From positions 1-52,845 of IMG/VR virus record IMGVR_UViG_3300034251_000012: a DNA stretch of 52,845 nt; one strand, written 5' to 3'. The stretch is from a virus. The translations under genes and the position numbers were made by a program. Shown in pieces: positions 5,266 through 44,023 of this stretch (position 1 is the stretch's first letter; the number at the start of each line of letters is the position of its first letter). The notes under the pieces are model-generated. The model had not been told where the DNA came from. It made no database searches and saw only the letters and a list, made by a program, of their open reading frames with translations.

Positions 5266-5284
5266 ATGCTCAGAGCCGATCCGC

Positions 5285-5899: not shown

Positions 5900-5944
5900 G
5901 TGACTGACTCCTTTTACTGAGAATGAGCCGGCAGTGCCGGGCGA

Positions 5945-7911: not shown

Positions 7912-7939
7912 TAAAGCTCCCGATCACAATCCGACTTGC

Positions 7940-8398: not shown

Positions 8399-8483
8399 GG
8401 TCTCTCTCCTCTGTCTCCTGAAGCCTGTGATTGACGGACGGCGACTCTTGCCAAGCGCCGCCCGTCAATTCAGAACGGACTGT

Positions 8484-9641: not shown

Positions 9642-9684
9642 GATTATCTAAATCTCCTTTTTCTCTGTACTTGTGACCGTGCGC

Positions 9685-15624: not shown

Positions 15625-16263
15625 TCATGCCGCGAGCCTCAGGCACGTGCCGCACACGCCTTCAATGTGTGCGGGGGCAATCGTGGGCTTTGCCCGCGCG
15701 GCCTCGACGAGTTTTACGGTATCGCCCGCGGCCGCTCCCACGCCGTAGCGGGCGACGATGCCGACGAACTCTTCGACGTCGTGGCCGCGAATGCCCCAAA
15801 CGGGGACGCCCTTCGTCGTGATGTGCTTCAACGCACAATGGTAAAGCTCGTGCTCGACGAGCGCGCAGAAAGTCGGATTGTCTATCCGGTTGGCGTAAGG
15901 GGCGTAGAGCGTGATGAGGAAGTCGGGAATGTTGCCCGGTTCGTCTTCGTTAGGGAACCAGCCGCGGAGCTGCGCGCGGTGGCGCGACTTCTCCCACTTG
16001 CTCATCATCGGCTTGGGCTTCGTGAGTTCGGCCGTGCCGACAACGGGGCGCATCTGCCGGTCGTTCTCCTCATTAGTCCAAAGCACGCCAATCGTAGCCA
16101 TCTGGAGATGCGCGTGATGGGGGTTATAGAGAAGGGAGCCGTCGAAGAGGAAGACGTCGAGCGCCCAGTCGGCCACCTCGGGCGCGGGCACAAACAAGTC
16201 TTCACTACCGAGGTGAGTCAGCGACAACGGCGGGAATGGCCGCTTTAAGTCCGGCAACTTCAT
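15625..16263 (-). CDS. Putative phage metallopeptidase (HExxH)
   Basis: The motif ALVEHELYHCAL contains HExxH. The protein is 212 aa. Confidence 0.6.
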   Translation of the reverse strand: MKLPDLKRPFPPLSLTHLGSEDLFVPAPEVADWALDVFLFDGSLLYNPHHAHLQMATIGVLWTNEENDRQMRPVVGTAELTKPKPMMSKWEKSRHRAQLRGWFPNEDEPGNIPDFLITLYAPYANRIDNPTFCALVEHELYHCALKHITTKGVPVWGIRGHDVEEFVGIVARYGVGAAAGDTVKLVEAARAKPTIAPAHIEGVCGTCLRLAA

Positions 16264-23453: not shown

Positions 23454-25118
23454 CTATGCCGCCCGTTGCGTTAAATACCGCTCGGCCATCCGCCGGATGT
23501 AATCCCCGTCAACGGCCAGCCTCTCGATGAGCTCACCCTGCGGAGTTCTCACGCCTTCGATCTGCCGGCGCTTCAGTCCCAGCACCTCTGCGATCATCGG
23601 GTCCGCGCCCTCGTCGCTCACCATGAAGTAGGCCATCACCGCGCCCGGTTGCCCGTCGCGATGGACGCGGCCGATGCACTGCTCATGCACGCCGGGCGAC
23701 CAGTCGAGTTCGCCGAAACAGAGCGTCTTCGCCACCCCTTGCAGGCCGTCGAGGCCCGCGCCCGACCGGAGCGACATGATCAGCACTTGCGCGTCACCCT
23801 CGGTGAACGCCTTCTTCGAGTTCTCCTTTTGCGTGATCGATTCCGTCCCGGTGTACATCACGGGCCGCAGGTCGGAGAGGCGGTCGAGCCAGATGGAATA
23901 CACTTCGCGGTGCCAGCCGTAGAGCACGACCCGCTCACCGGATTCGACCAGCAGGCGCACGAAGGCGGCCACATAAGGAGCTTTGGCGATGCCCGTGGCT
24001 TGCCGGAGACGGTTGTTGAACTCCTCCCGCGCGCGCATCTTCTCGCCGCGCCCCTCCTCCCCCGCTCGCAGGATGAGGCGCGCCAGTTCCGCGCAGGAGT
24101 CGCCGACGGCGTCGAGGGCTTTCGGGTCGGCCTCGACGTACTGGTGAAACTTCGAGAGCGCGGGCAGTTCCCGCCCCACGTCCTCACGCGTGCGGCGCAG
24201 CATCAGCCCGGAGTCACGCAGGTACATGCCGAACGCTTTGGGGTTTTTAATCGAAGGCTTCCGGAAATCGCTGTCCGTCCACTCGCGCATGAACTCGTCA
24301 CGCTCGCCGAGACTCCCCGGGGAGACGACGTCCAGCACCGAATAGAACTCGCCGCCGTAGTTGTAAATCGGAGTCGCCGACAGCCCCATCCGGTAGCGCG
24401 CCCGCAACGCCAGGTGCCGCGCCGCCGCATACTTCTGGCTCCCGGCGTGCCTCAACTCCTGGCACTCGTCGAAGCAGACGGAGCGCGTCGTCCGCGCGAG
24501 CGTCTCGGCCCAGCCGTTTAATTTGTGATAATTCAACACGACGACATCGGGTTTCTCTTTGAACGGGTAGGGCTGCCCGCTCTTCGCCACGTGGACGTTC
24601 AGTCCCGGCGCAAATTTGTTCATCTCGTCGCGCCATTGCCGGGGCAGGTGCGCGAGCGTCACGACCGCGGCGGGCAGCGTCTCAGGTTTTGTCAGCGTGC
24701 AGATAAAGCTCACGGTCTTTCCCAGTCCCACGTCGTCGGCGAGCAGGAGGCTTCGCCGGTTCAACATCATCGTCGCCGCCACCTTCTGATACTCGCGCGG
24801 CGGCAGCGCCAGCTCGAATGCGGCCGTCTGCGACCGCTCGTGCATCACGTCGAAGACGTATTGCTCGACCTTCCGGTGCAGCGTCGCCTGCACGCCGAGG
24901 AGCGAGCGGTCGCCCTCCTCCATCTCCAGCGGGTAGCGCTCCATGAACCATTCAAGGTCGCGCGCGTTCTCTCTCGACCCGGATATGCGGTGCGTGCCAT
25001 AGCTCGCCTTCGAGAGCTTCCCGAAGACCCGTTTGAGCCGCATTGAGACGTGCGGCTCGCAGTCCACCAGCCACGTCTCCGATTCACGGTCGAACCTGAC
25101 CCGGCCGTAAGTTTTCAA
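23454..25118 (-). CDS. SNF2-family helicase / DNA translocase
   Basis: Motif I is LLLADDVGLGKT, motif II is VCFDECQELRH and motif VI is EQCIGRVHRDGQ. Confidence 0.9.
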   Translation of the reverse strand: MKTYGRVRFDRESETWLVDCEPHVSMRLKRVFGKLSKASYGTHRISGSRENARDLEWFMERYPLEMEEGDRSLLGVQATLHRKVEQYVFDVMHERSQTAAFELALPPREYQKVAATMMLNRRSLLLADDVGLGKTVSFICTLTKPETLPAAVVTLAHLPRQWRDEMNKFAPGLNVHVAKSGQPYPFKEKPDVVVLNYHKLNGWAETLARTTRSVCFDECQELRHAGSQKYAAARHLALRARYRMGLSATPIYNYGGEFYSVLDVVSPGSLGERDEFMREWTDSDFRKPSIKNPKAFGMYLRDSGLMLRRTREDVGRELPALSKFHQYVEADPKALDAVGDSCAELARLILRAGEEGRGEKMRAREEFNNRLRQATGIAKAPYVAAFVRLLVESGERVVLYGWHREVYSIWLDRLSDLRPVMYTGTESITQKENSKKAFTEGDAQVLIMSLRSGAGLDGLQGVAKTLCFGELDWSPGVHEQCIGRVHRDGQPGAVMAYFMVSDEGADPMIAEVLGLKRRQIEGVRTPQGELIERLAVDGDYIRRMAERYLTQRAA

Positions 25119-26567: not shown

Positions 26568-26795
26568 TCACGCCGCGGCTTCCTCGACCGGGTTGGAGAC
26601 TTCCAGCCACGTCACGCCGTAGGCGGCCAGCAGCACGGGTATCTTCTCCGTCGGCGGCCGGAAGAGGCCGCGCTCGATGCCGGAGATCGCGGCCTGCGAA
26701 TAGACACCTTTAGTGCGGCGCGCCACCTCGGCCTGCGGCATCCAGCCTCTTTTCTCTCGTAGTTTTGCAGGGTCAATAACTCGGAGGTCGTCCAT
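26568..26795 (-). CDS. Cro-like XRE-family HTH regulator (first gene of the leftward early operon)
   Basis: The HTH is MPQAEVARRTKGVYSQAAISGIERG. The gene is divergent from the CI-like gene across a 160-bp operator region. Confidence 0.7.
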   Translation of the reverse strand: MDDLRVIDPAKLREKRGWMPQAEVARRTKGVYSQAAISGIERGLFRPPTEKIPVLLAAYGVTWLEVSNPVEEAAA

Positions 26796-26955: not shown

Positions 26956-27492
26956 ATGGTAAATCAGATGGGGGCCGACATGGTCGTTACATTCGGCGAC
27001 TGGATCAAGGCCAAACGAGAAGCTAGGGGCATGTCACAAACCGAGTTGGCTCGGTTGTCTGAACCTTGCTCACAAGGTTACATCTCCAATCTGGAGCGCA
27101 ATTCTTACGAGCGCCGAGACGAGATGAGCAACCAGCCGAACAAAGACCTGGTGATCAGGATCGCGCAAGCACTCCAGTCTTCCGAGACGGAAGCCCTGGA
27201 GGCCGCAGGCTACATCGTGCATCACCCCGAGCTTAACGCGAACCAACTGCGAGCTGCTGACTTGATAATCTTGCTCCCGAAGGACAGGCAGGAAGAGCTG
27301 ATCCGCGAGATGGAGTTGAAGGTGCAGATGTACGGTCACGGCGGCGGTGGCAGCGGTGCCCCGTCCGTCAAGCCAGGTGATGAACTCTGGCGACAGCCCA
27401 TCGGCACGACAGCTCAGAAACACCGGAAGGGCAAAAAGGCGGGCAAGAACACAGTGAGGAGGCCGCAGTCGTCAGATCGCCGAACGGCATAG
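26956..27492 (+). CDS. CI-like XRE-family repressor lacking an S24 autocleavage domain
   Basis: The HTH is MSQTELARLSEPCSQGYISNLERN. The C-terminal half is Gly-rich and basic with no Ser-Lys peptidase-like region. Confidence 0.7.
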   Translation: MVNQMGADMVVTFGDWIKAKREARGMSQTELARLSEPCSQGYISNLERNSYERRDEMSNQPNKDLVIRIAQALQSSETEALEAAGYIVHHPELNANQLRAADLIILLPKDRQEELIREMELKVQMYGHGGGGSGAPSVKPGDELWRQPIGTTAQKHRKGKKAGKNTVRRPQSSDRRTA

Positions 27493-27546: not shown

Positions 27547-27777
27547 TTACGGCAATATGAAGATGAGCAGAGTGGTCAGCTCATCGATCAGTATTTCGCC
27601 GAGGGGTGTGTCTTGTGCCTCGTCAGAGGTGCTAACCGAGGGTGAGGCCGGAGGCGGGGGAGGGGGCATCCGGTCGCCGCCAGTGACAATGATGCCCTCG
27701 GCCATGACGAGGGATGACAGAATACAGGTCATTACGAAGGCACAGATAGTGTGCCTCACCAAATTTGAAAATCTCAT
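27547..27777 (-). CDS. Small secreted pro-peptide candidate (76 aa)
   Basis: The N-terminus MRFSNLVRHTICAFVMTCILSSLVMA-EG looks like a Sec signal peptide. It is followed by a poly-Pro linker and a hydrophobic C-terminus LTTLLIFILP. The start is set at the internal ATG at 27777, with GGAAAGG upstream. Confidence 0.45.
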   Translation of the reverse strand: MRFSNLVRHTICAFVMTCILSSLVMAEGIIVTGGDRMPPPPPPASPSVSTSDEAQDTPLGEILIDELTTLLIFILP

Positions 27778-27896
27778 TTTCTTGTGAGCCTTTCCTGAGT
27801 GAAGGCCGGCTTCGACTGCGAATCGACGCCGACGTAAATACACAAACCCAATCCGAAGTGTATCATAGGGTTAAGGCTCTCAAGAATTATACGATC

Positions 27897-29291
27897 ATGC
27901 ATCTCACGGTTTATTCTCACAAATCGTACCTTCCCTCCATCCCCGATGAGAAGGCCGAACACGCGCTGGCGACAGCGCGGCAATTCAAGCAGCAGGGATG
28001 CTATGAAGAGGCGCGCGAGACCATCGCCGACTACTGGCAGGACATCGGCTCCCGTTACAACATAGACTCGCTCTCGGAGCCTGTGCGAGCCCGCATGTTG
28101 CTCATGATCGGAAGCCTCACATGCGCCCTCGGAACCCAGCGGCGCATGAAGGGCGCGCAACGCATTGCCCGAGAGACGTTGCGACTCTCGATTCAACTCG
28201 CGACCAAAGTCAATGACCCCGATCTCGTTGCAGCAGGCTTGTGTGAGGTCGGCTACACGTTTTACCGGGACGGTAAACTTGACTCGGCAAGAGTGATACT
28301 ACGCAAGGCCGAGCAGATCGAAGGTTTAGTTGAAGGTGAGACGCTCGCCTTTATCCGCTATCGACAGGCCTGCGTTGAGCACCTTTTAGGCAACCTCGAC
28401 GAGGCTTACAGTATCCTGACTCAAAATGCTCGCCTTTTCGACATACATGTCTCCGGCAATGAGAACCTAATCGGCGGCTTTCACAACCTACTCGCCATCG
28501 TACTGCTGGGCTTAAGCACTACAACTTCAGAGTCTACCTTTATAGACCGAGCTTTCATCGAATACTATGCTGCCCAGTATCATTTTCAGCGCGCTGGTCA
28601 TACTCGTTTTGAAGCTGCTGCCCTGAACAACATCGGCTTCATCCTGTTCACTCAGGGGAAGTTCGATGAGGCTCATGACTATCTCGACCGCGCCCGGACA
28701 ATTTTCATCGCGGTTGATGACGCCGCCCGTGTGGCACAGGTGGACGAAACTCGTGCGCGCGTTTACACGGCTCAGGGTGACCTCGAAAAGGCCGTGACCC
28801 TCATCAACGCTGCGGTCGCCAGCCTGAGAACCACCGAAGAAAGAATGCTCCTTCGCGAGGCTATCGAAGAGCAGGCGAAGATCATCAAACTCGCCGTCGA
28901 AAAGAGCATCAGAGTCCCGAAATTCTGTCACCTCTCAAGTGCCGATAACATGCGTAACACCGCTCAGAAGAAAGAGGAGGACGTTTTCACTCTTGAAATG
29001 GCCGACGGGGATGAATCACTCGCCGATGCAGGCATCCAGCCGGGCGACATCATTCCTTTCCTGAGCACGAGCACCGCTGATCCTGGCCGTTTCGTCGCGG
29101 CCTTTCACATGCGCAAGCAGACCTACCTCATGGGCTTCTACTATCCGGGCGTCGAGCCTCCGCCGGAATCGGGCTACGAGTTCGACGATGAAGTAACCAT
29201 GTTCCGCTACGCCAACGACGAATACGATCCAGACTATTTCCTGCCTCACGAAATAACAATCATCGGCATCCACCCCACGCTCCGCCATTAA
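27897..29291 (+). CDS. TPR-repeat protein fused to a LexA/S24-like C-terminal domain
   Basis: TPR-like repeats are present (e.g. AALNNIGFILFTQGKFDEAHDYLDRARTIF). The C-terminus EMADGDESLADAGIQPGDIIPF...GRFVAAFHMRKQTYL aligns by eye with LexA GDSM...GD...K. The start is set at the ATG at 27897 to avoid overlap with the divergent peptide gene. Confidence 0.65.
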   Translation: MHLTVYSHKSYLPSIPDEKAEHALATARQFKQQGCYEEARETIADYWQDIGSRYNIDSLSEPVRARMLLMIGSLTCALGTQRRMKGAQRIARETLRLSIQLATKVNDPDLVAAGLCEVGYTFYRDGKLDSARVILRKAEQIEGLVEGETLAFIRYRQACVEHLLGNLDEAYSILTQNARLFDIHVSGNENLIGGFHNLLAIVLLGLSTTTSESTFIDRAFIEYYAAQYHFQRAGHTRFEAAALNNIGFILFTQGKFDEAHDYLDRARTIFIAVDDAARVAQVDETRARVYTAQGDLEKAVTLINAAVASLRTTEERMLLREAIEEQAKIIKLAVEKSIRVPKFCHLSSADNMRNTAQKKEEDVFTLEMADGDESLADAGIQPGDIIPFLSTSTADPGRFVAAFHMRKQTYLMGFYYPGVEPPPESGYEFDDEVTMFRYANDEYDPDYFLPHEITIIGIHPTLRH

Positions 29292-29443: not shown

Positions 29444-29644
29444 ATGACATTCAACCCGCCACTCAAACACATGGAGCGCGTCCGGTACTACACCGCGTCG
29501 CTCCGCGACGGTCGCCGCAGCCACAGCGACGGGCAGATCACCGGCGTCCGCCAGCGCGGCGAGCGCACCGAGATCAACATCATGGGCATTTCCTACTGGA
29601 TTAACGCCAACCGGATTGTTTATCGCTACGACTTCAACCAATAG
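29444..29644 (+). CDS. Hypothetical protein
   Basis: A 66-aa ORF, first in the operon downstream of the consensus promoter. Confidence 0.45.
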   Translation: MTFNPPLKHMERVRYYTASLRDGRRSHSDGQITGVRQRGERTEINIMGISYWINANRIVYRYDFNQ

Positions 29645-29658
29645 ATCGAAAACCATCA

Positions 29659-29883
29659 ATGCTCCTGAACGAAAACCAATATCTAAGAGTGCGAAGCGTG
29701 CCGGGCGGACTCGATTTCGATATGTGTGAGCGCACGCCGCTCGGAATAGTTCATGTTGTTAAGAAGTTCGTTCCCACGAAGAAACTACTCACAGCTCGCC
29801 GCCAAGCTGTGCAACTAGGTACCCTGCTCGACTTTATGCACCTCGAACTTGAGAACCTCAACAATGAAAAATCTTCAAGTTGA
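29659..29883 (+). CDS. Hypothetical protein
   Basis: A 74-aa ORF. Confidence 0.45.
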   Translation: MLLNENQYLRVRSVPGGLDFDMCERTPLGIVHVVKKFVPTKKLLTARRQAVQLGTLLDFMHLELENLNNEKSSS

Positions 29884-30109: not shown

Positions 30110-30581
30110 ACTTCCCTTCGACCCCGGCGACGACGATGCGGCCGACGAGCGCGAGTTCGAGGCGTTGACAGAAGCTCTCAACGAAGTCACAGCGAAATGC
30201 GCGGCCGGCGCTGTCGAACAAGACCGCGCCAACGCGCGCCGCGCGGAACTGATGAGCGCGGTCGGAAACCACCGCCGCCGGCGCGCGCGCACGCTGCTCG
30301 ACCGGTTCCTCCCGCCCATCACCTTCTACCAGATCGAGTTTGCCGACCCGACGCCCGAAGAGATCGTTGCCTTCGCCGACGAGAGCGTCGAGGTGGACGC
30401 CGAGATACGGCGACACCAAAAGCTCCTCGGTCTCACCGACGCCCTCGTCAATCAATTCGTGCGCCAGACGTGGAAAATATCCGCGCGCTGGCCTGACCTC
30501 AACTTCCGTTACCGGCGCCTGCTGCTCGGGGCGCTCCGCGAAAAGGCGAAGCCTTTAACATCACTCAAAGGAGCACTTTAA
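30093..30581 (+). CDS. Hypothetical acidic protein (162 aa)
   Basis: GTG start at 30093 preceded by GGAGGAGG at optimal spacing. The upstream part of the 233-aa track ORF is out-of-context Arg/Ser-rich sequence. Confidence 0.55.
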   Translation: MSALLKLPFDPGDDDAADEREFEALTEALNEVTAKCAAGAVEQDRANARRAELMSAVGNHRRRRARTLLDRFLPPITFYQIEFADPTPEEIVAFADESVEVDAEIRRHQKLLGLTDALVNQFVRQTWKISARWPDLNFRYRRLLLGALREKAKPLTSLKGAL

Positions 30582-32386
30582 TGTCCGCTGTCATTGATCC
30601 GAACATTCGCGCCCTTCATGCCCGCCTCTCGATGGACGATCTGGAGATCGTCGAGCAGCTCGGCCTTTGGGGCTGGACACTGGTCGCCGACGGCCGCGGC
30701 TACCGCTGGGAGAAAGAAAAGGGCGTCGGCGGTAGCGCAATTCTGATGGAAGACGAGCAGGTCGTCTCGATGGCGCGCGAGATGATGTCGCGCATGGATG
30801 AGCCGGCCGCGCCGGTCGAAGCGGCTCCCGGCGCGCCGACAGAAGAGCCGGCCGCTGTCCTCCCGGACGATCTCAGCGCGCTCGGCTGGGTGCTCCTCAC
30901 GAATCACGGGATGTGGTTCTGCCGTCAAGAGGAAGCCAACCTGACGACCGGCATGAAGAGCAAGGTCAAGGCCGCGTTCGACGAGGCGCGGGAGATTCAG
31001 GCGCGGCAGCCCATTACCACGCAGGAGACCTCCGAAGAGTTGCCGGAGATGCCCCAAGACCTCGCCGACGTGGGCTGGACGTTCAAGCGTGAGGGCGACG
31101 AGTTGTACGCGGAGCACGAGGAGCGTTATGTCTGCACGAGTCGCGACCAGTCAGACCCGGCCGTCGTCATCGCCGAGGCCTACAGCATGCAGGAAGACTA
31201 CGAGCGAAGCGTCGAGGAGGCGAATCGCGTGCCGGTGCGCCCCAACACAACCGCTCCTGACGAGCAGTTGCTTCCAGTTGATTCCATCCGTCTCGACGGC
31301 GACACGCAGACGCGCGCGCAGCTCGACATGCTCACCATCACCAACTACGCCGAGTTGATGCGCGGCGGCACCAGATTTCCTCCGGTCGAAGTCTTCTTCG
31401 ACGGCGAGCATTACTGGCTCGCCGACGGCTTTCACCGCGTCGCCGGGACGAAGCAGGCCGAGATCACCGAGATCAATGCCAACATCCGGCCGGGCACGCA
31501 GCGCGACGCGATTCTCTTCTCCGTCGGCGCGAACGCGCTGCACGGCCTCCCGCGCACGAACGCCGACAAGCGGCGCGCCGTCGAGAAGCTCCTGACCGAC
31601 GAGGAGTGGCGCGGTTGGACGGACGGGCGCATCGCTGACGCCGCCGGGGTCTCCCCGCCCTTCGTCAAGTCCATCCGCGACGAGTTCACTCAAAAGGGAT
31701 TAGAGTCGCCGGCCGTGCGCATCGGGAAAGACGGGCGCAAGATCGACACCTCCAACATCGGCGACCGCGAGGCGGCGACGGCCGCGGCCGAGGCGCAGCC
31801 GGAGCTGCCGGGCGCGGCCGCAGTGGAGACGGCCGCTGGTGACGCGCCGGCTGCCGTTGCCGATAATTCCCTCTCAAATGAGGAGCCGAAAAAGGCAACG
31901 AGCTTGCCCGCAGGCGTCTCGGAAGCCCCGGGCGACACTCAGGCCGCACCGGTCGCCGCCGCCCCGCCAGAGGTCACGCCTGCGCAGACCGCGGCCGTCG
32001 CAGCACCCGCTGCCGCTGGAGTCGCATGGCCGGAGCAGCACCTCATCATCACCTTCGACATCAAGGCCGGGAAGTCGTCGAAACGCGCAGTCACGATCTC
32101 AGGTCGCGCCGGAGAAGGCGTGCCCGTCTTCCTCACCGAGTTCACCCTCGCCGACCTCGAACCGATGTCTACCGCCTTCGCCTCGCTCGTCGGCCGGCTG
32201 GGCGGTGGCGTCGGCGCGCCCGCGGTTACTCCTACGGTCGAAGCCGAGGCCGAGGCCGCGCCCACCAACGCTCCCGCAAAGAAGGGCGGCGGGCGGAAAC
32301 CGGCGAAGCGTGCCACGAAGAAAGCCGCAGCCAAGAAAACGAAGAGCGGGAAAGCTAAACAGCCCGCCAAACAGGCGCGCGGGTAA
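30581..32386 (+). CDS. ParB/Srx-fold (ParB N-terminal domain) protein with triple N-terminal repeats and an Ala/Pro/Lys-rich tail
   Basis: The ParBc hallmark is present: VDSIRLDGDTQTR...HYWLADGFHRVAG...ILFSVGANALHGL. There are three ~45-aa GW-containing repeats at the N-terminus and a Lys-rich C-terminus. Confidence 0.8.
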   Translation: MSAVIDPNIRALHARLSMDDLEIVEQLGLWGWTLVADGRGYRWEKEKGVGGSAILMEDEQVVSMAREMMSRMDEPAAPVEAAPGAPTEEPAAVLPDDLSALGWVLLTNHGMWFCRQEEANLTTGMKSKVKAAFDEAREIQARQPITTQETSEELPEMPQDLADVGWTFKREGDELYAEHEERYVCTSRDQSDPAVVIAEAYSMQEDYERSVEEANRVPVRPNTTAPDEQLLPVDSIRLDGDTQTRAQLDMLTITNYAELMRGGTRFPPVEVFFDGEHYWLADGFHRVAGTKQAEITEINANIRPGTQRDAILFSVGANALHGLPRTNADKRRAVEKLLTDEEWRGWTDGRIADAAGVSPPFVKSIRDEFTQKGLESPAVRIGKDGRKIDTSNIGDREAATAAAEAQPELPGAAAVETAAGDAPAAVADNSLSNEEPKKATSLPAGVSEAPGDTQAAPVAAAPPEVTPAQTAAVAAPAAAGVAWPEQHLIITFDIKAGKSSKRAVTISGRAGEGVPVFLTEFTLADLEPMSTAFASLVGRLGGGVGAPAVTPTVEAEAEAAPTNAPAKKGGGRKPAKRATKKAAAKKTKSGKAKQPAKQARG

Positions 32387-32804: not shown

Positions 32805-33698
32805 ATGAACCTCCGCTCCGTCACACGGATCAAGTCGCAGCTCCTCGCCGCCCCCGCGTTCATCAACGTGCGGGAGGCGGCGGTGCGGCTCGTCAGCGCC
32901 CGTGACCGCTGCTCGCCCGGGGAAGCGCTGAGGCGCATCAAGATGGACGGGGATTTCACGGACGTCCTCGACCTGCTCCGTCTCGTCCTACCGGAGCCGG
33001 AGCAGGAGTGGCGACGCAAGTTCGTCACCATCTACGACCTCTCGCCCGTGCTCGGCTTCCCCATCAATGAAGATTACATGATGGACATGGCCGAAGAGTG
33101 GCGTGCGGAGGGCGCGCGGATCGGAGACATGTCAATCCCTTTGTACAGTCTGAACCCCACCGGCGAGAATTATAGCTCCGTGTCGCTCGCCTACTCGCTG
33201 GCCCTGCTCCTCGACCGCACGCCCTCGGCCGAGGAATACCGGGGATCACGCATTGACGATGAAGTGTGGGCGCGCCTCTCAGTTACATACGACCTCGAAC
33301 CGGCGGATAGACCCGAGGGTGGCGTCTCTGACGAGGCAATCGAGGCGACCTTCTCCCGGCAGCGCAACCCCCTGCGCTACATACCGCGCGCGCAGGCCGT
33401 GACCCGCTACGACACCGGGTGTGGCTTCCTCGACTTCAATGACGAGTGGGGCGATGCGGACATTGAATGGTCGCGCCAGAACGTGATCTGGCTGCGACGT
33501 GACTACAAAGACTCCCAGCGGATTCTGAAACGAATTGAGAAGCTCGACGAATGGCTGAAGCGCGATACGACGGAGCGCATCTCGCTCGCCCTCAGACTTT
33601 ATCGCAAGGCGCAAAACACAGATGTCAAGAAAAAGCAGACAGCCCGCATCCCCGTCAACACCGGAACAGGCGGCCGAGCGCTCGTTGATGTTCTTTGA
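32805..33698 (+). CDS. Cassette protein of unknown function (297 aa; occupies the position of PRTRC protein F)
   Basis: Internal ATG at 32805 (MNLRSVTRIK...). It lies between the Ubl and the E2-like gene. Confidence 0.5.
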   Translation: MNLRSVTRIKSQLLAAPAFINVREAAVRLVSARDRCSPGEALRRIKMDGDFTDVLDLLRLVLPEPEQEWRRKFVTIYDLSPVLGFPINEDYMMDMAEEWRAEGARIGDMSIPLYSLNPTGENYSSVSLAYSLALLLDRTPSAEEYRGSRIDDEVWARLSVTYDLEPADRPEGGVSDEAIEATFSRQRNPLRYIPRAQAVTRYDTGCGFLDFNDEWGDADIEWSRQNVIWLRRDYKDSQRILKRIEKLDEWLKRDTTERISLALRLYRKAQNTDVKKKQTARIPVNTGTGGRALVDVL

Positions 33699-34332
33699 CG
33701 GGCAGATTCTCTACCGCAGGCGCACCGAGCGCGGCGAGCAGTATAAGTTCTTATCACCGGCCGCCGTGGCGGAGGCCTTTCGGCAGGCGCCCTTCGACAC
33801 CGGCCACCTGCCGCCCGGCGTCTTCAGGTGCGGCCAGAGCGCGCGCGGCGACTTCGCCGCCCTCGTCATCCCGGCACAGCGTCACGAGCTGTCTGTTGAA
33901 AGCGCGCGCCGCGGCGGCGGGCGGGCGGTGCTCAGTTTGTGGCTGCCGGCATTCGTCTTCTTCGGCATCGCGCAGAGCTATCACGTCTGGGCGGTGAAGT
34001 CGGATGTGACTACGCCCGATCTCGTGCTGCATCACGCGCCGCTGCCGAACGTCTTCAACAACGGCGGCATCTGCTGGGGGCAGAACGACCGCCCCGCCGC
34101 CTCGACGCAAACCATCACCGAGGCGTGGAAACTCTTCATCGGATCGCCATTCAACGAGCATGCGGCGTCGAATAAAGTCCGGGGCGTCGCGGGCGACGTG
34201 CGCCCGTATCTGCGGAACGTCTCACGGTCGAAGAGGCGGTTTCCGCTCGGCGATCTGCTGCCGATGAGGATGCACGGCAGGAGCACGCTCGACCCGGCGA
34301 TCACGGAACTCATTCAGGAAGGTGGGCAATGA
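33688..34332 (+). CDS. E2/UBC-like protein (PRTRC protein B-like)
   Basis: HHAPLPNVFNNGGICWG resembles the E2 HPN...G-x-I-C active-site region. The start is ambiguous (33622 or 33688). Confidence 0.6.
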   Translation: MFFDGQILYRRRTERGEQYKFLSPAAVAEAFRQAPFDTGHLPPGVFRCGQSARGDFAALVIPAQRHELSVESARRGGGRAVLSLWLPAFVFFGIAQSYHVWAVKSDVTTPDLVLHHAPLPNVFNNGGICWGQNDRPAASTQTITEAWKLFIGSPFNEHAASNKVRGVAGDVRPYLRNVSRSKRRFPLGDLLPMRMHGRSTLDPAITELIQEGGQ

Positions 34333-34994
34333 TTCAACTCGCAGGCTATCGCGTCATCCGCCGGGGTGAAAATTTGCAGGACGCGGCGGATCGGTCGGAC
34401 ACGCCCCCGCGCTCGACGATGTTCGATTACCTCTTCGGCGCGAACGGCGTCTTCATCAAGGCCTCGCGCATGTTCCTGAGCGCCTGCGTCCCTGTCGGCT
34501 GGTGCGACATCCGCGGCCTCGCCGTGATCGAGCCATCCGTTGCCCTCGACGCCCCGCGGGTCCCGGCCGCCCTCATCGCGCGCGCGCTGAACCGCTCGCG
34601 TGAAGTGTGTGTGAGAGCGGGCAAGCCCCGGGAGATTCTGTTCTACCTTATTTACGAAGACACCTCGGAGACGACCGGCGAGTGGAGGCTCGTCGAGCCG
34701 GAGCAGATCGCGACCGGCGGGAGCGTCCACCCGACGGACGACGCCGGCGATGAATACCGCCGGGCGATCATCGAGCTGCACAGCCACAATGAGATGCAGG
34801 CCTTCTTCTCGTCGCAGGATGACCGGGACGAGCAGGGCTTCAGAATCTATGCCGTGATCGGAAACATCTTCACGAAGCCCGCCTTGCGCGTGCGCGTAGG
34901 CGTCTACGGTTACTTTTACGAGCTGGCGGCGGCCGACATCTTCGAGTTGCCGGAGGGGCTGGAAGACGCGGCAGAGATCGGAGAGAGACGATGA
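34329..34994 (+). CDS. JAB/MPN+ (JAMM) metalloisopeptidase (PRTRC protein A-like)
   Basis: ELHSHNEMQAFFSSQD gives H-x-H-x7-S-x2-D, with upstream Glu residues. It has an ATGA overlap with the upstream gene. Confidence 0.8.
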   Translation: MIQLAGYRVIRRGENLQDAADRSDTPPRSTMFDYLFGANGVFIKASRMFLSACVPVGWCDIRGLAVIEPSVALDAPRVPAALIARALNRSREVCVRAGKPREILFYLIYEDTSETTGEWRLVEPEQIATGGSVHPTDDAGDEYRRAIIELHSHNEMQAFFSSQDDRDEQGFRIYAVIGNIFTKPALRVRVGVYGYFYELAAADIFELPEGLEDAAEIGERR

Positions 34995-35431
34995 ACATTT
35001 ACATTGCTAGTAGTTGGAAGAATGTCCACGCAGTCGAAATGCTCACCGCATTGCTGCGTGAGCGCGGCCATACGGTGCTGTCCTTCGTGGAAAACAATCA
35101 CGGAGAGAATCCTAACTCGTCCATCAATGAAAAGGCCGGAGAGAAGCCCGTGCCATTCGACGAATGGTGTGCCTCCCAAGACGGCGCTCGCTCGTTCACC
35201 TATGACATCGCAGGCGCGACAACCTCAGACCTTGTGATCTACGTCGGCCCGTCAGGCACTGATGCCTGGGCGGAAGTCGGCGCGGCATGGGCGAGCGGCA
35301 GACTAATTCTCGGGCTGTGGGCAAAGGGCGAGCCGGTCGGGTTGATGCGCCGCATGGTCGAATGGTCAACGGACTATCGCCAGCTACTCATTAACGTAGA
35401 TTCTGTCGTGAAAGCGAAAGAGAAGCAATGA
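34991..35431 (+). CDS. Nucleoside 2-deoxyribosyltransferase-like protein
   Basis: The N-terminus is MNIYIASSW and the segment DLVIYVGPSGTDAWAEVGAAWASGRLILG fits the NDT-like fold signature. The gene is AT-richer than its neighbours and has ATGA overlaps on both sides. Confidence 0.5.
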   Translation: MNIYIASSWKNVHAVEMLTALLRERGHTVLSFVENNHGENPNSSINEKAGEKPVPFDEWCASQDGARSFTYDIAGATTSDLVIYVGPSGTDAWAEVGAAWASGRLILGLWAKGEPVGLMRRMVEWSTDYRQLLINVDSVVKAKEKQ

Positions 35432-36315
35432 GAAAGAACCCGACGACACTCGATCTCTCCTACGCAGTCGCCGCGACCGTCCTCGCGCGCCAGCCCGAGC
35501 GCGGCCCCATCACCTTCTGGCTCGTCGGGTGCGGCGGTAACGGCTCGCACGTCGCGCAGCACCTCGGCCGCCTGCTCTTCTCGATGAAGGCGCGGGGCAT
35601 ACGCGCGCGCGCGATCTTCGTGGATCACGACACGGTCGAGCCGAAGAATGTCGGCCGGCAGAATTTCAGCTCGCCCGAGGTGGGTCGCAACAAGGCCGAG
35701 ACGCTCGCCCGCAGGTTCGGCGCGGCGTGGGGTCTCGACATCGAGGCCGTGCCCTCCCGCTTCAAACACACCATGTTCACGCTCGATGCCGATCAGGACG
35801 AGCTGGGCGTCATCGTCGGGTGCGTAGACAACGCCGCGGGGCGCGTCGAGATGAATAAGTGTCTCTCCCGGAATGGGCAGGGGCGTGTCCCTGACGTGTG
35901 GCACCTCGACTGCGGCAACCACGAGCAGGCCGGGCAGGTGCTCCTCGGCTCCGCGTGGCACGCCGACCAGTTGAAGGGCGCCTTCCCCTCCCGCTCCCTG
36001 TGCCATGCGCTCCCCGGCCCGGCGCTGCAAAGCCCGGAGCTACTCGTCGCGCGCCCCGAGGAGCGGGCGGCGGCGAAGAAGATGTCATGCGCCGAACTCG
36101 TCGCGGCGAACCAGCAGTCGCACGACATCAACGCGGCCGTCGCGGTCGCCGCGAAGACGATGCTCACGCAGCTCTTCCTGACGCGAGACCTGAAGCGACT
36201 CGCATGCGAGGTGAACAATCTGGCAGGCTCGATGCGCTCGACCTACGTCACGCCGGAGGCAGTTGCCCGGATCACGTCCAAGCCGGTCAAATTCATTTAC
36301 AGGGAGGCCGCCTGA
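35428..36315 (+). CDS. ThiF/E1-like adenylating enzyme
   Basis: The Rossmann loop is WLVGCGGNGSHV, followed by FVDHDTVEPKNVGRQNF...VGRNKAETLA, typical of the ThiF/MoeB/E1 family. Confidence 0.85.
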   Translation: MRKNPTTLDLSYAVAATVLARQPERGPITFWLVGCGGNGSHVAQHLGRLLFSMKARGIRARAIFVDHDTVEPKNVGRQNFSSPEVGRNKAETLARRFGAAWGLDIEAVPSRFKHTMFTLDADQDELGVIVGCVDNAAGRVEMNKCLSRNGQGRVPDVWHLDCGNHEQAGQVLLGSAWHADQLKGAFPSRSLCHALPGPALQSPELLVARPEERAAAKKMSCAELVAANQQSHDINAAVAVAAKTMLTQLFLTRDLKRLACEVNNLAGSMRSTYVTPEAVARITSKPVKFIYREAA

Positions 36316-36992: not shown

Positions 36993-37025
36993 CTTAAAAC
37001 GTCCGTTTGTTGGGCATGGAGAATT

Positions 37026-37235
37026 ATGAGTGAAAGTAACGTGTCGGGAAATGGCGAGCGCGTGTTTCGCATCCACGCGACTCAGACCATGTTTGATGAG
37101 CGCGTCGAGCGAATGGAGGTTCCCATTCTAGCGGCCTCAGAGTCGCACGCCGTCTATCTGTTTTGGAACTCCCAAGCCCCGCGAACGTCTCTTGTTCGAG
37201 CGATGGAAATCATTGCCGTCGTGCGTGACGAATAG
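37026..37235 (+). CDS. Hypothetical protein
   Basis: A 69-aa ORF, last in the rightward operon, with GGAGAAT upstream. Confidence 0.4.
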   Translation: MSESNVSGNGERVFRIHATQTMFDERVERMEVPILAASESHAVYLFWNSQAPRTSLVRAMEIIAVVRDE

Positions 37236-37694
37236 CCCTCTTTTTTGAATATGGAGAATCCCATGAGCTATCCCTACTATTGATCGTGGCGGAGTGGTTG
37301 GGGCGATAAGGAACTTGACTCAAAACGAATTAGAGTGAAAATGGGGATTATGAGGGGAGATATGAGTAATGGCTGACGACAGGGAATGGTTTACATCTTT
37401 CGACAGCGAGTTTTTAATACGTGAACTGGAAAACAAGGATACCCACATCGTAAACCTTTACGGCCGTCTGGTACACGGCGAATGGGAATATGCAATCGTT
37501 CGCTGGCGCTACCGCCGCCTACTCTCATCCTGCGATTCAAGGGTAAACAGATTCTCGAAGCGGAAGAGTTGTGAAAATTCTTCTTACCTTAAACCCCTGC
37601 ACTTCCCCGCCCTCCTTATCCCTTTGTGCGTCGCTATCAACAGTTGCAGCCGTGTAACCCGGCGTGAAACCCGCGCGCGCCTATTGGCTGCCGC

Positions 37695-38789
37695 CTACCT
37701 CCGGGACGGGCTGGAGCTGTGTGTGTGTGTGCATCTCGCGACGCCCTTGTCCGGCCCCTCCGGGTACCAGAAGCCGACGCCGGCGCAGTCCGGGCACTTG
37801 CGCCGCTCTTCCCGGCTGAGCGCGGGCGCGGCCACGCTCTCCAGCACGGTGGCCATCTCCGCCACACGCGCCTTGTCCGCTTTCCACAGGCGGCGGCGCA
37901 GGTGCTCCGAGAGGAACGCCGGCACGTTCGAGACCGTCGTGCGCGCCGCCGCGATCCGCAGCTCCGCGACGAGTATCTCCGCCAGCTCCTCCCACCGCTC
38001 GCCGCTCGTCGAGACCTTGCCCGTCAGTTCCCTCTCGACCTCGATCAGCTTGGCGGTCAGCCGGCGCGCGCCAGCGTCATCATCAGAATTCCCTTCTTTA
38101 GTCTTAATTAAAGTCTTAGCATCACTCGAAGGTGTTGATTCTATAACCACTTGACCCCCTCCACCTCCTACCGGTTTTTGGGTAGACCCTCCACCCAATT
38201 CTTGATCGGAGGTGGGAGGTGGTATGAGGTGGTGGTAGGAGGTGGAGGGAGGGGGCAGCTCTTCGGGAATGAAGACCTCATATCGCGCCCCGTCGTTGTC
38301 GCCGAGTTCCCACTTCTGCACGATCAGCCCGACGGCTTGCAGATGCCTCAGATGCCCGCGCAGGGTGTTGTGACTGATACCCGCCCACTCCATCATGTCG
38401 CCCTGTCTGGCCTGGATCATCCGGACGGGGACGATTGCACCTCGCGTGCGTTGGTAAAGGGCGTCGTAGAGCTTCTTCGACGTGCCTTTGAACAGGCCGG
38501 CCGGCAGCGCGTCGCGGCTGATCGAATTGGCCACCCGCGCGAAATCTCTTCGGGGGGCTGCGTCCTGAGAACTGGGTGGAGGGGGGTGGTGGTAGGTGGT
38601 GGTAGGAGGGGGCAGAGCAGCTTCCACCGGAGACTCGGGGGCGTCGTGTGATCCCGCCAGCAGGAATGCCAGCGCCTTGCGCGCCGGTGTTTTACCTTCC
38701 GGGGCTGCGCGCTCAAGCGCTTCGTTCGCCCGCTGATCCGCTGCTGATAATTTGGTTTTCGGCGGTGGCATGAGCGACCTCTTTCGCAA
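37695..38789 (-). CDS. Second initiator-like / centromere-binding-like protein (paralog of 20575..21654 at the C-terminus)
   Basis: The wHTH-like core is MMEWAGISHNTLRGHLRHLQAVGLIV. The C-terminal CPDCAGVGFWYPEGPDKGVARCTHTH matches CPDCHGKGFWYPAGED...KCKH of the other initiator. Internal DNA repeats encode PPPTTTYHHPPPP and PPPSTSYHHLIPPP. The 5' end overlaps parA by 77 nt, so the true start is uncertain. Confidence 0.55.
   Translation of the reverse strand: MRKRSLMPPPKTKLSAADQRANEALERAAPEGKTPARKALAFLLAGSHDAPESPVEAALPPPTTTYHHPPPPSSQDAAPRRDFARVANSISRDALPAGLFKGTSKKLYDALYQRTRGAIVPVRMIQARQGDMMEWAGISHNTLRGHLRHLQAVGLIVQKWELGDNDGARYEVFIPEELPPPSTSYHHLIPPPTSDQELGGGSTQKPVGGGGGQVVIESTPSSDAKTLIKTKEGNSDDDAGARRLTAKLIEVERELTGKVSTSGERWEELAEILVAELRIAAARTTVSNVPAFLSEHLRRRLWKADKARVAEMATVLESVAAPALSREERRKCPDCAGVGFWYPEGPDKGVARCTHTHSSSPSRR
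38157..38250. repeat. Inverted and direct GGTAGG/GGTGG repeats inside the second initiator-like gene
   Basis: ccctccacctcctacc (38157-38172) is the reverse complement of ggtaggaggtggaggg (38235-38250). Related copies lie at 38187-38196 and 38209-38225. Confidence 0.5.
38575..38612. repeat. Second block of GGTGGTAGG repeats in the same gene
   Basis: ggtggaggggggtggtggtaggtggtggtaggagggggcag; compare ggtggtaggaggtggagggagggggcag at 38231-38258. Confidence 0.5.
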
Positions 38790-39498
38790 GTCGGTTGTAA
38801 TCCAGATACCCGCTTGATCGCGAGTAATCGAGCAGTGGGCGACCGGCCGACATGGCGACCGAGATGTCCGTGTTCAGATTGATCTTGGCATTGAGCAGGT
38901 GGCTCTCGAATTCCTCTTCGAGCCGGCGGCGTAAATTCTCGGACTCTTTGACGCCTTGACGGAAGAAAGTTTGTAAGGCCAGCACTTTCCATCGCTTTGA
39001 GAAAGCCTGACTGAGTCCCGTCATCAGGTCGAGCAGTTCGAGCGCCTCTTTGAGCGCCAGAGAGGATGAGACGGGCACGATCACGTGATCGGCAGCCATC
39101 AGTGCATTGACTGTCAGGAGCCCTAAATTCGGCGGGCAGTCAATCACGGCGTATTCGTATTCCAGCCCTTCGAGGGTGAGAGCCAGTTTCTCTTCACGAC
39201 GGTAGACGTTTCTGAGTTCCACTTCTCCCATGGCCAGCTCGCGGTTGGCAGGGAGCAGGAACGTGTGATCGCGCAGCGCACGAATAGCGTCGGGCGCGAC
39301 CGCACGGCCGAAGAGCACGTCATAGATGGTCGGCGAGAGCAGGTTGGCGTCGAGCGCGAATCCTTGCGCGCAGTGGCCCTGCGGGTCGAAGTCCACGAGC
39401 AGGGTCTTGTGCTTTAAGCCGAGGAAGGCCGCGAGGTTGACAGACGTGGCGGTCTTACCGACTCCGCCCTTCTGGTTCGCGATGGCGATTGTGATCAT
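38713..39498 (-). CDS. parA: ParA/Soj-family partition ATPase
   Basis: The deviant Walker A is IAIANQKGGVGKTATSVNLAA. The protein is 261 aa. Confidence 0.9.
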   Translation of the reverse strand: MITIAIANQKGGVGKTATSVNLAAFLGLKHKTLLVDFDPQGHCAQGFALDANLLSPTIYDVLFGRAVAPDAIRALRDHTFLLPANRELAMGEVELRNVYRREEKLALTLEGLEYEYAVIDCPPNLGLLTVNALMAADHVIVPVSSSLALKEALELLDLMTGLSQAFSKRWKVLALQTFFRQGVKESENLRRRLEEEFESHLLNAKINLNTDISVAMSAGRPLLDYSRSSGYLDYNRLAKEVAHATAENQIISSGSAGERSA

Positions 39499-42234: not shown

Positions 42235-42263
42235 GTTGCCATTAGGCGGTGTCACCTCTTAAG

Positions 42264-42722
42264 ATGCCCGTCATGAAAACTTCATCGTCAGCGACCGCTA
42301 ACCTCTCACTAGTCGCCGTCATCTGGATCGTTATCGTGCTCGGGTGTAGCGCCCCTCCCTCTTCTCCCTCTTCTTCGTCATCCGCCCCGGGCAGCACGCC
42401 CCCGCCGGCCACGCTCGTCGTCGAAGCCTCCGCCCTGGTGAAAGCCTACGAAGACAACGAGGTGGCGGCCGACAATTTATACAAGGGAAAGTTTCTCGAA
42501 ATCACCGGCACGATCAATACCATCGGCAAAGACATTCTCGATGACATGTATGTCTCTTTGAGGAGCGGGCGAGAGTTAGAGATATTCGGCGTTCAATGTT
42601 TCTTCGCCGAAGAGCATAAGTCCCAGCTCGCCGCCCTGAAGAAGGGCCAGCAGGTGAAGATTATAGGCCGCTGTGACGGAAAATTCGGGAACATCCTCAT
42701 CAAGGATGCTCGTCTCAAGTAG
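42264..42722 (+). CDS. Lipoprotein with an OB-fold (tRNA_anti-like) domain; moron
   Basis: The signal sequence and lipobox are LVAVIWIVIVLGCSAPP. The segment AYEDNEVAADNLYKGKFLEITGTI...VKIIGRCDG resembles the OB-fold tRNA_anti-like family. The gene is AT-richer than its flanks. The start is ambiguous (GTG 42249, ATG 42264 or ATG 42273). Confidence 0.6.
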   Translation: MPVMKTSSSATANLSLVAVIWIVIVLGCSAPPSSPSSSSSAPGSTPPPATLVVEASALVKAYEDNEVAADNLYKGKFLEITGTINTIGKDILDDMYVSLRSGRELEIFGVQCFFAEEHKSQLAALKKGQQVKIIGRCDGKFGNILIKDARLK

Positions 42723-42771: not shown

Positions 42772-43635
42772 TCACTCGAAGCATCTGGCGATGAATGCGG
42801 TCAGATCGTCCGTCGTCTTCTCAACGCCCACGTTGTGATCTCCCTCCAGCGTGACGACCTCGCTCTCCAGCGCCGCGCCCGCGACGAGCCGCGCGAATGC
42901 CCCGCCGTGCATGTACCACGGCACGATGCGATCTCCGTCTCCGCCGTAGAACCTGAGCCGGACACCTGCCCAGTCGCGCGCGTCACGCGTCTGCGGATCG
43001 TGCCCGATGGTCTGCGCCTCGAAGTTCGAGCCGTCCGGGTTGATGCCGTAGGCGAAGTTGATGCCGGTGGCCATCTGCGCATTGTAGTTGTACTGGCCGC
43101 GCAGGTGCGTCACCGGGTAGTAAAGCGCGGCGCACCTGACCGGGATGCGCCCGTCCGGAATTGAGGTCAGGGTCACGAGGCCGCCCATCGAGTTGCCGAG
43201 CATCGCAACGCGCGTCGTGTCCACCCCGTACCGGCTCACGATGTAACTGTATAGCTCGAAGTTCGCGTCGAGTGCTTTCCGGTTGCCCCAGTTGTAATAG
43301 CCGCCGTCCGGGTTGTCGGTCAGGCGGGACATGGCGACGATGTAGCCCTGCTCAAGCAGCGCATCGAGGAGCGCGCGGAAGGGCGGCAGATCGTAAAACT
43401 GCCGCTCGGTCTGACCCGCGGCGTGGTTCAGGATGACGAGCGGGCGCCCCGGCCCGAAGCGATGGTTGCTCTTACCTATCGCCCGACGTGGGATGAACAC
43501 CATCGCAGGCGTCGAGAGTGAGGTGACGGACACCATGTGAGGCGGCGTCGTCTCGCGCGCGGCTTTGAATTTGGATTGTGAAAAGGCCGGGGAAGTAGTG
43601 AGTAGAAGGGCGAGCGTCAGGGTGAGAGTTTTCAA
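42772..43635 (-). CDS. Secreted alpha/beta hydrolase (esterase/lipase-type), paralog of the fibre C-terminus
   Basis: The signal peptide is MKTLTLTLALLLTTSPAFSQS. The nucleophile elbow is GNSMGG, and candidate Asp (GDGDRIVP) and His (EGDHN) are present. About half of the residues match 825-aa protein residues ~590-825 by eye. Confidence 0.8.
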   Translation of the reverse strand: MKTLTLTLALLLTTSPAFSQSKFKAARETTPPHMVSVTSLSTPAMVFIPRRAIGKSNHRFGPGRPLVILNHAAGQTERQFYDLPPFRALLDALLEQGYIVAMSRLTDNPDGGYYNWGNRKALDANFELYSYIVSRYGVDTTRVAMLGNSMGGLVTLTSIPDGRIPVRCAALYYPVTHLRGQYNYNAQMATGINFAYGINPDGSNFEAQTIGHDPQTRDARDWAGVRLRFYGGDGDRIVPWYMHGGAFARLVAGAALESEVVTLEGDHNVGVEKTTDDLTAFIARCFE

Positions 43636-43738
43636 AGGGTGAGTCTCCGTAATAGATTTACTACATGAAGGGTAGTACGGGTAAACTACTACACCAAACG
43701 TAGGATTTCGTAAAGGTTAATTTGTGTATGATTAAGGG

Positions 43739-43978
43739 ATGGTGGTATCGAGAGTGCGGGAGGTGGCGGAGGCGCGCGGCATCAGAAGTTCCTATGAGCT
43801 TCAGAACATTGCCAAACTTGCGCCGACGATGGCGGTCAGGTTATGGCGCGGCGAGGTCACGCGATTCAGTGTGGAGACGCTCGATAAATTATGCGTTGCG
43901 CTCAGGGCTGAGGTAGGTGAACTGCTGGTGCATGTGCCGGCCGGTGAGCGAGAGGGAAGTGACAAAGGTCAGCATTGA
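43739..43978 (+). CDS. XRE-type HTH regulator divergent from the hydrolase gene
   Basis: VREVAEARGIRSSYELQNIAKLAPTMAVRLWRGE is HTH-like. The start is uncertain (ATG 43739 or a downstream GTG). Confidence 0.6.
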   Translation: MVVSRVREVAEARGIRSSYELQNIAKLAPTMAVRLWRGEVTRFSVETLDKLCVALRAEVGELLVHVPAGEREGSDKGQH

Positions 43979-44023
43979 GGCCAGAGGCTTAGAAGTTCTA
44001 AGCCTCTGGCCTCAATGCTGACC
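43967..44023. terminator. Bidirectional terminator-like perfect hairpin
   Basis: ggtcagcattgaggccagaggcttagaa / ttctaagcctctggcctcaatgctgacc form 28-bp arms between convergent genes. Confidence 0.65.

Follow-up and report, generated by a model that had tools for sequence, protein, structure and literature searches.

What do two divergent genes of a tailed phage do together, one encoding a small protein with a predicted signal peptide and the other a tetratricopeptide repeat (TPR) protein, directly downstream of a CI-like regulator gene? The question is raised by positions 27547-29291 of the IMG/VR virus record IMGVR_UViG_3300034251_000012, of which the whole stretch analysed, positions 1 to 52,845 (52,845 nucleotides, nt), is called the window below. 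The two genes may constitute a functional pair of peptide and sensor, a reading for which the case is evenly poised, and we attach the same middling confidence to the view that this TPR-module gene pair is shared by a temperate phage and its host lineage, the Pyrinomonadaceae (Acidobacteriota). A ligand and its sensor are suggested because the small exported protein and the TPR module stay together while the output domain of the latter is exchanged or absent. The cassette consists of the parts listed here, P0089 being a relative of 472 amino acids (aa) that is 30% identical to the full-length TPR sensor protein P0001 and is encoded on two short metagenome contigs.

27547-27777, minus strand: small secreted pro-peptide gene, 76 aa (ATG 27775-27777, stop TAA 27547-27549)
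27778-27896, no strand: divergent intergenic region of 119 nt with putative promoters for both genes
27897-29291, plus strand: gene of the TPR sensor protein P0001, 464 aa from its ATG, a start backed by full-length alignment with P0089

The protein encoded by the small open reading frame (ORF) reads MRFSNLVRHTICAFVMTCILSSLVMA/EGIIVTGGDRMPPPPPP...LLIFILP, the slash marking the predicted cleavage site, and can be divided into three segments.

27700-27777, minus strand: predicted Sec signal peptide (aa 1-26), with n-region MRFSNLVRH, h-region TICAFVMTCILSSLV and c-region V-M-A, and cleavage before EG
27649-27699, minus strand: first mature unit and poly-proline, EGIIVTGGDRMPPPPPP, matching a family motif located immediately after the cleavage site
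27550-27612, minus strand: conserved hydrophobic/amphipathic extreme C-terminus, DTPLGEILIDELTTLLIFILP, aligning with the family C-terminus D.[VL]TE[IA]AL.LLQ..L.L[FL]

The Sec signal call is heuristic, the n-h-c layout having been read off the sequence and off the alignment to the family consensus MK.LR..caa.vLtl.L..safA/G[DE]. In a search with a profile of 71 chromosomal homologues, built without the phage ORF, the 76-aa ORF was the single match in the window (E 1.8e-7), the runner-up among 2104 six-frame segments having an E-value of about 0.8; judged by its sequence, it is a genuine gene and not a chance ORF. Alignment with the family favours the 76-aa start; gene callers had picked a start giving 61 aa, which would cut off part of the signal peptide. 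The layout described in the initial annotation, a small divergent ORF with a Sec-type signal, a poly-proline stretch and a hydrophobic C-terminus (LLIFILP), is therefore that of a conserved family.

The association of the small gene with the TPR module extends far beyond the phage. A scan of one genome per species yielded at least 552 TPR relatives, often several per genome, and the pairing was counted in the 80 best GTDB loci (Pyrinomonadaceae) among them, with ORFs found by script. In about 72 of these 80 loci, all with a homologous TPR module, a small gene lies divergently upstream and ends 67-310 nt before the TPR start, mostly at about 130-180 nt and often at exactly 133-134 nt. The family shares a signal peptide consensus, MK.[YL]R...A..vL.l.l..s.fA/G[DE], a short unit that cleavage would place at the N-terminus (e.g., GDIHTG, DGIMWTD or GQMDTT), a linker that is PPPPPP or rich in P, T, S and A, and the hydrophobic extreme C-terminus given above. 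Counterparts of the first mature unit of the phage peptide are EGIIWTDKTPPPPP in loci L045 and L079 and DGVIIGGGDKTPPPPPPPP in L003. The N-terminal unit recurs internally with at least 5 of 6 identical residues in 23 of the 71 host peptides (mean best match in shuffled sequences, 3.06 of 6), and the phage peptide has a single copy of it. The pairing is kept across TPR outputs as different as HTH_8, receiver, sigma54 AAA+, none at all and the phage-type C-terminal domain, and individual genomes contain several paralogous cassettes with differing peptide sequences. The gene pair singled out in the initial annotation is thus conserved in chromosomal relatives and in other mobile elements, whatever the output domain of the TPR protein.

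Many host pro-peptides contain two to four near-identical copies of a 6-8-aa unit, the first copy beginning where the signal peptide is predicted to be cleaved (GDIGVG four times, GIMHTG three times, GDMSTG three times). Small ORFs with multi-copy units were seen in L011, L012, L023, L031, L037, L041, L047, L048, L062, L068, L074, L079 and L088; the repeated unit varies between paralogues, and the arrangement resembles that of multi-copy signal precursors.

When the 71-peptide profile was compared with six-frame segments of independent loci, exactly one ORF was retrieved in each, always upstream of the TPR gene, with E-values of 1.1e-7 for L006, 1.7e-10 for L090, 2.9e-5 for L003, 4e-16 for L007 and 2e-24 for L008, besides the value given above for the window. 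Both contigs encoding P0089 carry a divergent upstream gene of 68 aa, MNKWKLSLAASLLAALLSPLSVKA/DDGVIIGGGDKTPPPPPPPPEAPSVASPEWLVAFELALGLVPRV, with the same layout as the window peptide. A gene of this layout stands upstream of a 230-aa TPR-only gene in L006, a low-GC contig of 52.5 kb, upstream of a TPR-HTH_8 gene in L007, and, in L008, upstream of a TPR-only gene that precedes a receiver-domain gene. Two of these contigs, L006 and L090, are mobile-element-like. In L090 (IMG/VR UViG_3300045837_000213, positions 4597-10086), a second mobile-element context of the cassette, the order is a Cro-like helix-turn-helix (HTH) gene at 4597-4827 on the minus strand, an ORF without assignment, the small peptide gene, likewise on the minus strand, a TPR-sigma54 AAA-HTH_8 gene at 5917-8115, a gene whose 204-aa product begins with a signal-like segment, and a tyrosine integrase gene at 8785-10086.

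Searched against 5.8 billion proteins, the peptide profile returned 149 relatives; the 120 that are listed are all 62-108 aa long, annotated as hypothetical and without a Pfam domain, and neither Pfam nor NCBIfam holds a model for the peptide or for the TPR subfamily. Because these listed relatives are uniformly so short, the C-terminal motif is not a general sorting tag of larger proteins. Clustering of all neighbouring ORFs disclosed no second conserved partner (no transporter, protease, exporter or modifying enzyme), and the apparent neighbour clusters proved to be antisense shadow ORFs inside the GC-rich TPR gene. Readings of the small protein as a precursor of a ribosomally synthesized and post-translationally modified peptide, for which no conserved neighbouring enzyme was found, or as a sorting signal were rejected, as was that of an arrest peptide or secretion monitor, to which a signal peptide followed by poly-proline might point, there being no conserved downstream gene on the same strand.

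Spacers of the host loci (L012-L079) contain recurrent elements of their own. Some loci have inverted repeats that keep a fixed position: TTGCR-N5-9-YGCAA is present in 7 of 51 (0.15 in shuffled sequences), about 41 nt ahead of the ATG of the TPR gene, and CTTATC-N-GATAAG in 9 of 51. A near-invariant AAAGG-N6-CCTCAC immediately precedes this ATG. The inverted repeats are probably operators for the HTH_8 outputs; a search of the phage spacer for the host-type repeats found none.

The larger protein has two parts.

27924-28916, plus strand: TPR superhelix, aa 10-340 (AlphaFold, 16 helices)
28980-29288, plus strand: C-terminal domain, aa 362-464, with motifs D.SLA..G..PGD, VAA.H.R, GFY and E.TI.G.H..LR

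Pfam assigns TPR_12 to the 464-aa protein with an E-value of 1.6e-14. In the AlphaFold model of the full-length protein, made from an alignment of 59 homologues, a continuous superhelix spans aa 10-340 with a predicted local distance difference test (pLDDT) above 90, and aa 344-464 fall below 50. The initial annotation had described TPR-like repeats throughout the protein; the repeats are significant, but they occupy about 73% of it and are followed by another domain of about 100 aa. Foldseek placed the TPR domains of LGN/Pins, which hold extended peptides in their inner groove, first (E about 1e-6), followed by the Rap receptors 4gyo, 4i9c, 8rtc and 6t46, including the Rap of phage phi3T (E about 1e-4), and by MalT domain III; against viral models it returned generic TPR proteins only. 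Residues 17-330 (approximately) are 35-41% identical to a large family of Pyrinomonadaceae and other Acidobacteriota (closest E-values at or below 1e-55), and the phage host therefore most likely belongs to this lineage. In the relatives, whose outputs were classed by Pfam on representatives, the TPR module is always N-terminal and is followed by a Fis-type HTH_8 domain, by HTH_8 and a receiver, by sigma54 AAA+ and HTH_8, by a histidine-kinase output or by nothing. Since it always precedes such varied outputs, the TPR module is read as a sensory input domain.

Taken as a peptide and its sensor, the pair would operate as follows. The small protein would be exported and then cut by signal peptidase, and a fragment, either the C-terminal helix or the N-terminal unit, would re-enter the cytoplasm, where the TPR superhelix would bind it in its concave groove and the attached output domain would be switched. 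In the phage version, the DNA-binding output would have been swapped for the C-terminal domain of about 100 aa, so that the receptor would act through protein contacts in the manner of Rap-type receptors, its likeliest targets being regulators of the host or the neighbouring CI-like/Cro-like switch. The behaviour of the phage would thereby be tied to the density of cells carrying it or its relatives.

Several observations weigh against this interpretation. The export, processing, re-import and binding of the peptide are all predicted steps; the host bacteria are diderm, and beside the cassette there is no conserved gene for an importer, protease or exporter. The mature signal has two candidate regions, the C-terminal helix and the N-terminal unit, and the phage peptide has one N-terminal unit and a C-terminus that departs from the host consensus. 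The three identical copies of the locus provide no polymorphism and no ratio of nonsynonymous to synonymous substitution (dN/dS) for the small ORF. Furthermore, the phage genes around the L006 and L090 cassettes are not homologous to those of the window, and no HTH was detectable in the gene upstream of the L006 cassette or in the ORF directly upstream in L090; the location beside a regulatory switch is for this reason a pattern mainly of the window and partly of L090.

Among the other explanations, the one that fares best, although we hold it to be unlikely, makes the small amphipathic protein an effector (bacteriocin-like, surfactant-like, acting on the envelope, or serving superinfection exclusion by the phage), the expression of which the TPR protein merely controls or accompanies. 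The mature part does end in a hydrophobic/amphipathic stretch, as membrane-active peptides do, the inverted repeats in the shared promoter of some host loci would fit autoregulation of a divergent pair, and the phage has other accessory genes, including a Sie-like gene. However, no immunity or transporter gene is conserved nearby, and the adjacency outlives both the loss of the DNA-binding domain, as in the TPR-only proteins of L006, L008 and L029, and its replacement by the phage-type C-terminal domain. Because the DNA-binding output is exchangeable and can be absent, a link between regulator and target alone can hardly explain the pairing.

A secretion-coupled partner switch, in which the TPR protein would bind the cytoplasmic precursor, probably by its C-terminal helix, and be freed on export, in the way of the TPR class II chaperones of type III secretion systems or by the logic of FlgM, is distinctly improbable. 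It would dispense with re-import in a diderm host, and TPR proteins often bind C-terminal helices or tails; P0089 and P0009 are also weakly similar to TPR chaperones of type III secretion in NCBIfam, a hint at most, as the scores are far under the cut-off. On the other hand, Sec substrates normally leave the cytoplasm quickly, no dedicated secretion system is tied to the cassettes, and many paralogues with diversified peptides in one genome suit signalling specificity better.

The C-terminal domain of the phage protein had been aligned by eye with the LexA/S24 Ser-Lys peptidase fold in the initial annotation, and in this respect the original description has to be revised. An exhaustive HMMER search of 1.84 billion representative proteins retrieved P0089 as the only relative of the domain (37% identity, alignment A1), two other matches being spurious hits to repeat proteins; a word-indexed search and a metagenome scan with the two-sequence C-terminal alignment gave no relatives, and L020, which had appeared to be a partial relative, is in fact a TPR-HTH_8-receiver protein. 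The similarity to S24 peptidases is local. Peptidase_S24 of Pfam matches the full protein with an E-value of 0.22 and the domain alone with 0.035 (14.2 bits, cut-off 23.3), whereas P0089 has no Pfam S24 match. In an hhalign comparison with an alignment of the C-terminal domains of LexA, UmuD and lambda CI, 38 columns were aligned with 22% probability, Ser374, invariant in P0001 and P0089, being set on the nucleophile Ser119 of LexA; the motif in common is F.L....S[LM]...G[IY]..GD, and the later predicted strands appear by eye to be collinear with those of LexA. The by-eye alignment thus survives as a local match to the nucleophile strand, but the assignment to the peptidase family is not supported. 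No Lys of the domain is invariant between P0001 and P0089 (the P0089 residue opposite Lys407 of P0001 is Glu), neither linker, IRVPKFCHLSSADNMRNTAQKKEED in P0001 or RVVQPNEQPAPSNAILSNSPGTHT in P0089, contains an Ala-Gly or Cys-Gly cleavage dipeptide, and a profile search of the PDB with the domain gave no LexA, UmuD or CI chain at E-values up to 10, its matches to NAA10 and cardiolipin hydrolase (E of at least 0.5) being due to chance. The AlphaFold model of the domain, made from the two-sequence alignment only, has a pLDDT of 40.5 and is unusable. The CI-like protein seems to have an Ala84-Gly85 pair after its HTH, but this dipeptide follows the HTH in many XRE proteins and has no diagnostic value. 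It is accordingly very improbable that the domain is an active S24 peptidase, and no less so that it cuts itself or the CI-like repressor and in this way couples peptide sensing to induction. It is best seen as a new and probably beta-rich output or interaction domain, in which the conserved Ser374, His404 and His459 may be compatible with a non-canonical hydrolase activity.

How far, then, does the peptide-sensor cassette resemble described communication systems? The signature employed by RRNPP_detector comprises a propeptide of 10-100 aa, a Sec signal, a receptor of 250-500 aa, TPRs and direct adjacency (PMC10075063). All five are seen here, with a small protein of 76 aa, a Sec layout by the heuristic reading, a receptor of 464 aa, TPR_12 at the E-value given above and a spacer of 119 nt. 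The parallel drawn in the initial annotation with the logic of RRNPP and arbitrium systems, a TPR receptor together with a small exported pro-peptide, is upheld by this signature and by the conservation of the pair as an analogy, not as membership. The TPR protein has no match to the RRNPP or AimR families (Rap, Rgg, NprR, PlcR, PrgX, AimR) in Pfam, NCBIfam or PHROG. Its TPR region starts at about aa 10 with no N-terminal HTH, whereas in those receptors an XRE-type HTH, or the 3-helix bundle of Rap, precedes a C-terminal TPR domain, and the domain order of the host relatives is the reverse; its nearest relatives are instead the TPR-HTH_8, receiver and sigma54 proteins of Acidobacteriota, and the structural similarity of the TPR body to Rap is no better than that to generic superhelices such as LGN. 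We have therefore filed the cassette as one that would work like RRNPP/Rap-Phr systems and that is no member of them by homology.

Comparison with individual systems leads to the same picture. Rap-Phr systems, including that of phi3T, likewise combine a TPR receptor that lacks a DNA-binding domain with an adjacent Sec pro-peptide, and are carried by temperate phages. In Rap-Phr the peptide gene is downstream and co-oriented, whereas in the cassette it is upstream and divergent; the pro-peptide of the cassette is also longer, its linker being rich in proline and its hydrophobic C-terminus conserved, the phage TPR protein has an extra C-terminal domain, the host is a diderm acidobacterium and not a member of the Firmicutes, and no sequence homology was detected. 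The arbitrium system of SPbeta-like phages (AimR-AimP-AimX) is likewise a phage-borne pair of secreted pro-peptide and cytoplasmic TPR receptor in a temperate regulatory region, and a density-dependent lysis-lysogeny decision would be the natural functional analogy. AimR is a DNA-binding protein with an N-terminal HTH, and its gene is followed by aimP on the same strand; in the cassette, by contrast, the receptor is devoid of an HTH, the peptide gene is divergent, and neither an AimX-like output nor homology was identified. The divergent orientation of a small gene and a TPR-type receptor gene is shared with the Rgg-SHP systems of streptococci, in which the gene of a hydrophobic peptide diverges from that of the receptor, the signal derives from the hydrophobic C-terminus, and Rgg has an N-terminal HTH. 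The SHPs are shorter and are exported by PptAB rather than by Sec (PMC10075063). No homology of the cassette receptor to Rgg was detected. The closest relatives of the phage protein resemble enhancer-binding and NtrC/Fis-type regulators of bacteria, with the TPR module at the position of the input domain; the phage protein has lost the HTH_8, receiver and sigma54 outputs. To our knowledge, no TPR input domain with a dedicated secreted peptide gene has been described in the NtrC/Fis class, and a literature search, of incomplete coverage, did not return one.

The possible role of the pair in the phage is suggested by its surroundings.

26568-26795, minus strand: Cro-like HTH protein, 75 aa (Pfam HTH_31 and HTH_3), divergent from the CI-like gene
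26956-27492, plus strand: CI-like XRE/HTH_3 regulator, 178 aa (Pfam HTH_3, E 3e-9; PHROG repressor families), directly upstream of the cassette

The cassette is placed directly after the CI-like gene, and the connection with lysis and lysogeny is a positional and tentative one; control of the lysis-lysogeny decision by the pair, to which gene position points, is on balance doubtful. Two statements of the initial annotation on this region are confirmed. The stretch after the CI-like gene is an AT-richer island (GC 0.546 at 27547-29291, 0.619 in the whole window; equally low values occur in only 1.1% of equal-sized windows), with its coordinates and both ORFs correct, and the 178-aa CI-like protein has HTH_3 only in Pfam, without an S24 domain of its own. 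The TPR ORF in full opens at a TTG at 27765. In the spacer, a promoter-like TACACA-16-TATCAT is found at 27839-27866 on the plus strand, and AGGAAAGG lies 11 nt upstream of the ATG of the small ORF. Two loci, L001 and L002, are further copies of the locus and 100% identical to the window; no relative of the region was found among 50,697 phage records by DNA or protein search, and a scan of IMG/VR with a single-protein query gave no relatives. Downstream of the TPR gene and still within the low-GC stretch (29444-29883, plus strand), two small ORFs of 66 and 74 aa match nothing in Pfam or PHROG and lack a counterpart beside P0089 or in L006.

The window is the genome of a tailed phage, with genes for a tape measure protein, major head protein, protease, portal, large terminase and endolysin, an O-like replication initiator, and ParA-like and ParB-like proteins. 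The ParB-like protein (30581-32386, plus strand; phrog_1033) has 601 aa and a long low-complexity tail, and the ParA-like protein is encoded at 38713-39498 on the minus strand (phrog_164). No integrase was found among the window ORFs scanned, and the phage may persist as a plasmid prophage. A ubiquitin-like conjugation cluster occupies 33688-36315 on the plus strand, with Prok-E2_D (33688-34332), Prok-JAB (34329-34994), a 146-aa ORF and a ThiF/E1-like gene (35428-36315) as assigned by Pfam; the E1-like protein matches the E1-E2 models of PADLOC (E 3e-10). Such clusters are known as anti-phage systems, and their carriage by a phage is unexplained. The leftward early operon includes an SNF2-family helicase (23454-25118, minus strand) matching the defence helicases DpdE, ZorD and DrmD with E-values down to 6e-29. 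A phrog_513 'transposase' (15625-16263, minus strand; E 1e-50) adjoins the terminase region, and the Sie-like superinfection-exclusion protein is encoded at 42249-42722 on the plus strand (E 8e-19). Other compositional outliers of the window are 37001-37500, with a GC content of 0.49, and 43501-44000, where the GC skew has a spike of +0.34.

A wider proposal is possible, if speculative. The Pyrinomonadaceae of the phylum Acidobacteriota might own a large undescribed peptide-signalling family, in which a Sec pro-peptide is combined with a TPR sensor, the outputs are HTH_8, receiver, sigma54 or kinase, and each genome holds several specific paralogues; temperate phages might have captured the cassette and given it a new output, either for an arbitrium-like, density-dependent decision of the immunity switch or to eavesdrop on or jam the signalling of the host. 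Peptide quorum sensing through cytoplasmic TPR receptors, and the phage communication built on it, are textbook features of Firmicutes. Systems of the RRNPP and arbitrium types have been described for Firmicutes and their mobile elements, and the large surveys of such systems were built for Gram-positive genomes (PMC10075063; PMC9765709). Neither curated family libraries nor the full-text literature searched contained a description of the cassette, the coverage of the literature being incomplete and no proof of absence. Communication by a peptide and a TPR receptor is as such known, and what would be new here is the phylum, the architecture and the carriage by a phage.

Even if the small proteins were effectors, the family, which numbers at least 552 TPR loci among species representatives and 149 clusters of the peptide, now called 'hypothetical', is unannotated and worth naming. 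If the peptide-sensor reading is true, peptide communication would extend to a major diderm soil phylum and to its phages, which would pose the problem of how a peptide gets across two membranes and back. Synthesisable candidate signals would also become available for organisms that abound in soil and are barely tractable, and the phage cassette would rank as a candidate first arbitrium-like system beyond the Firmicutes.

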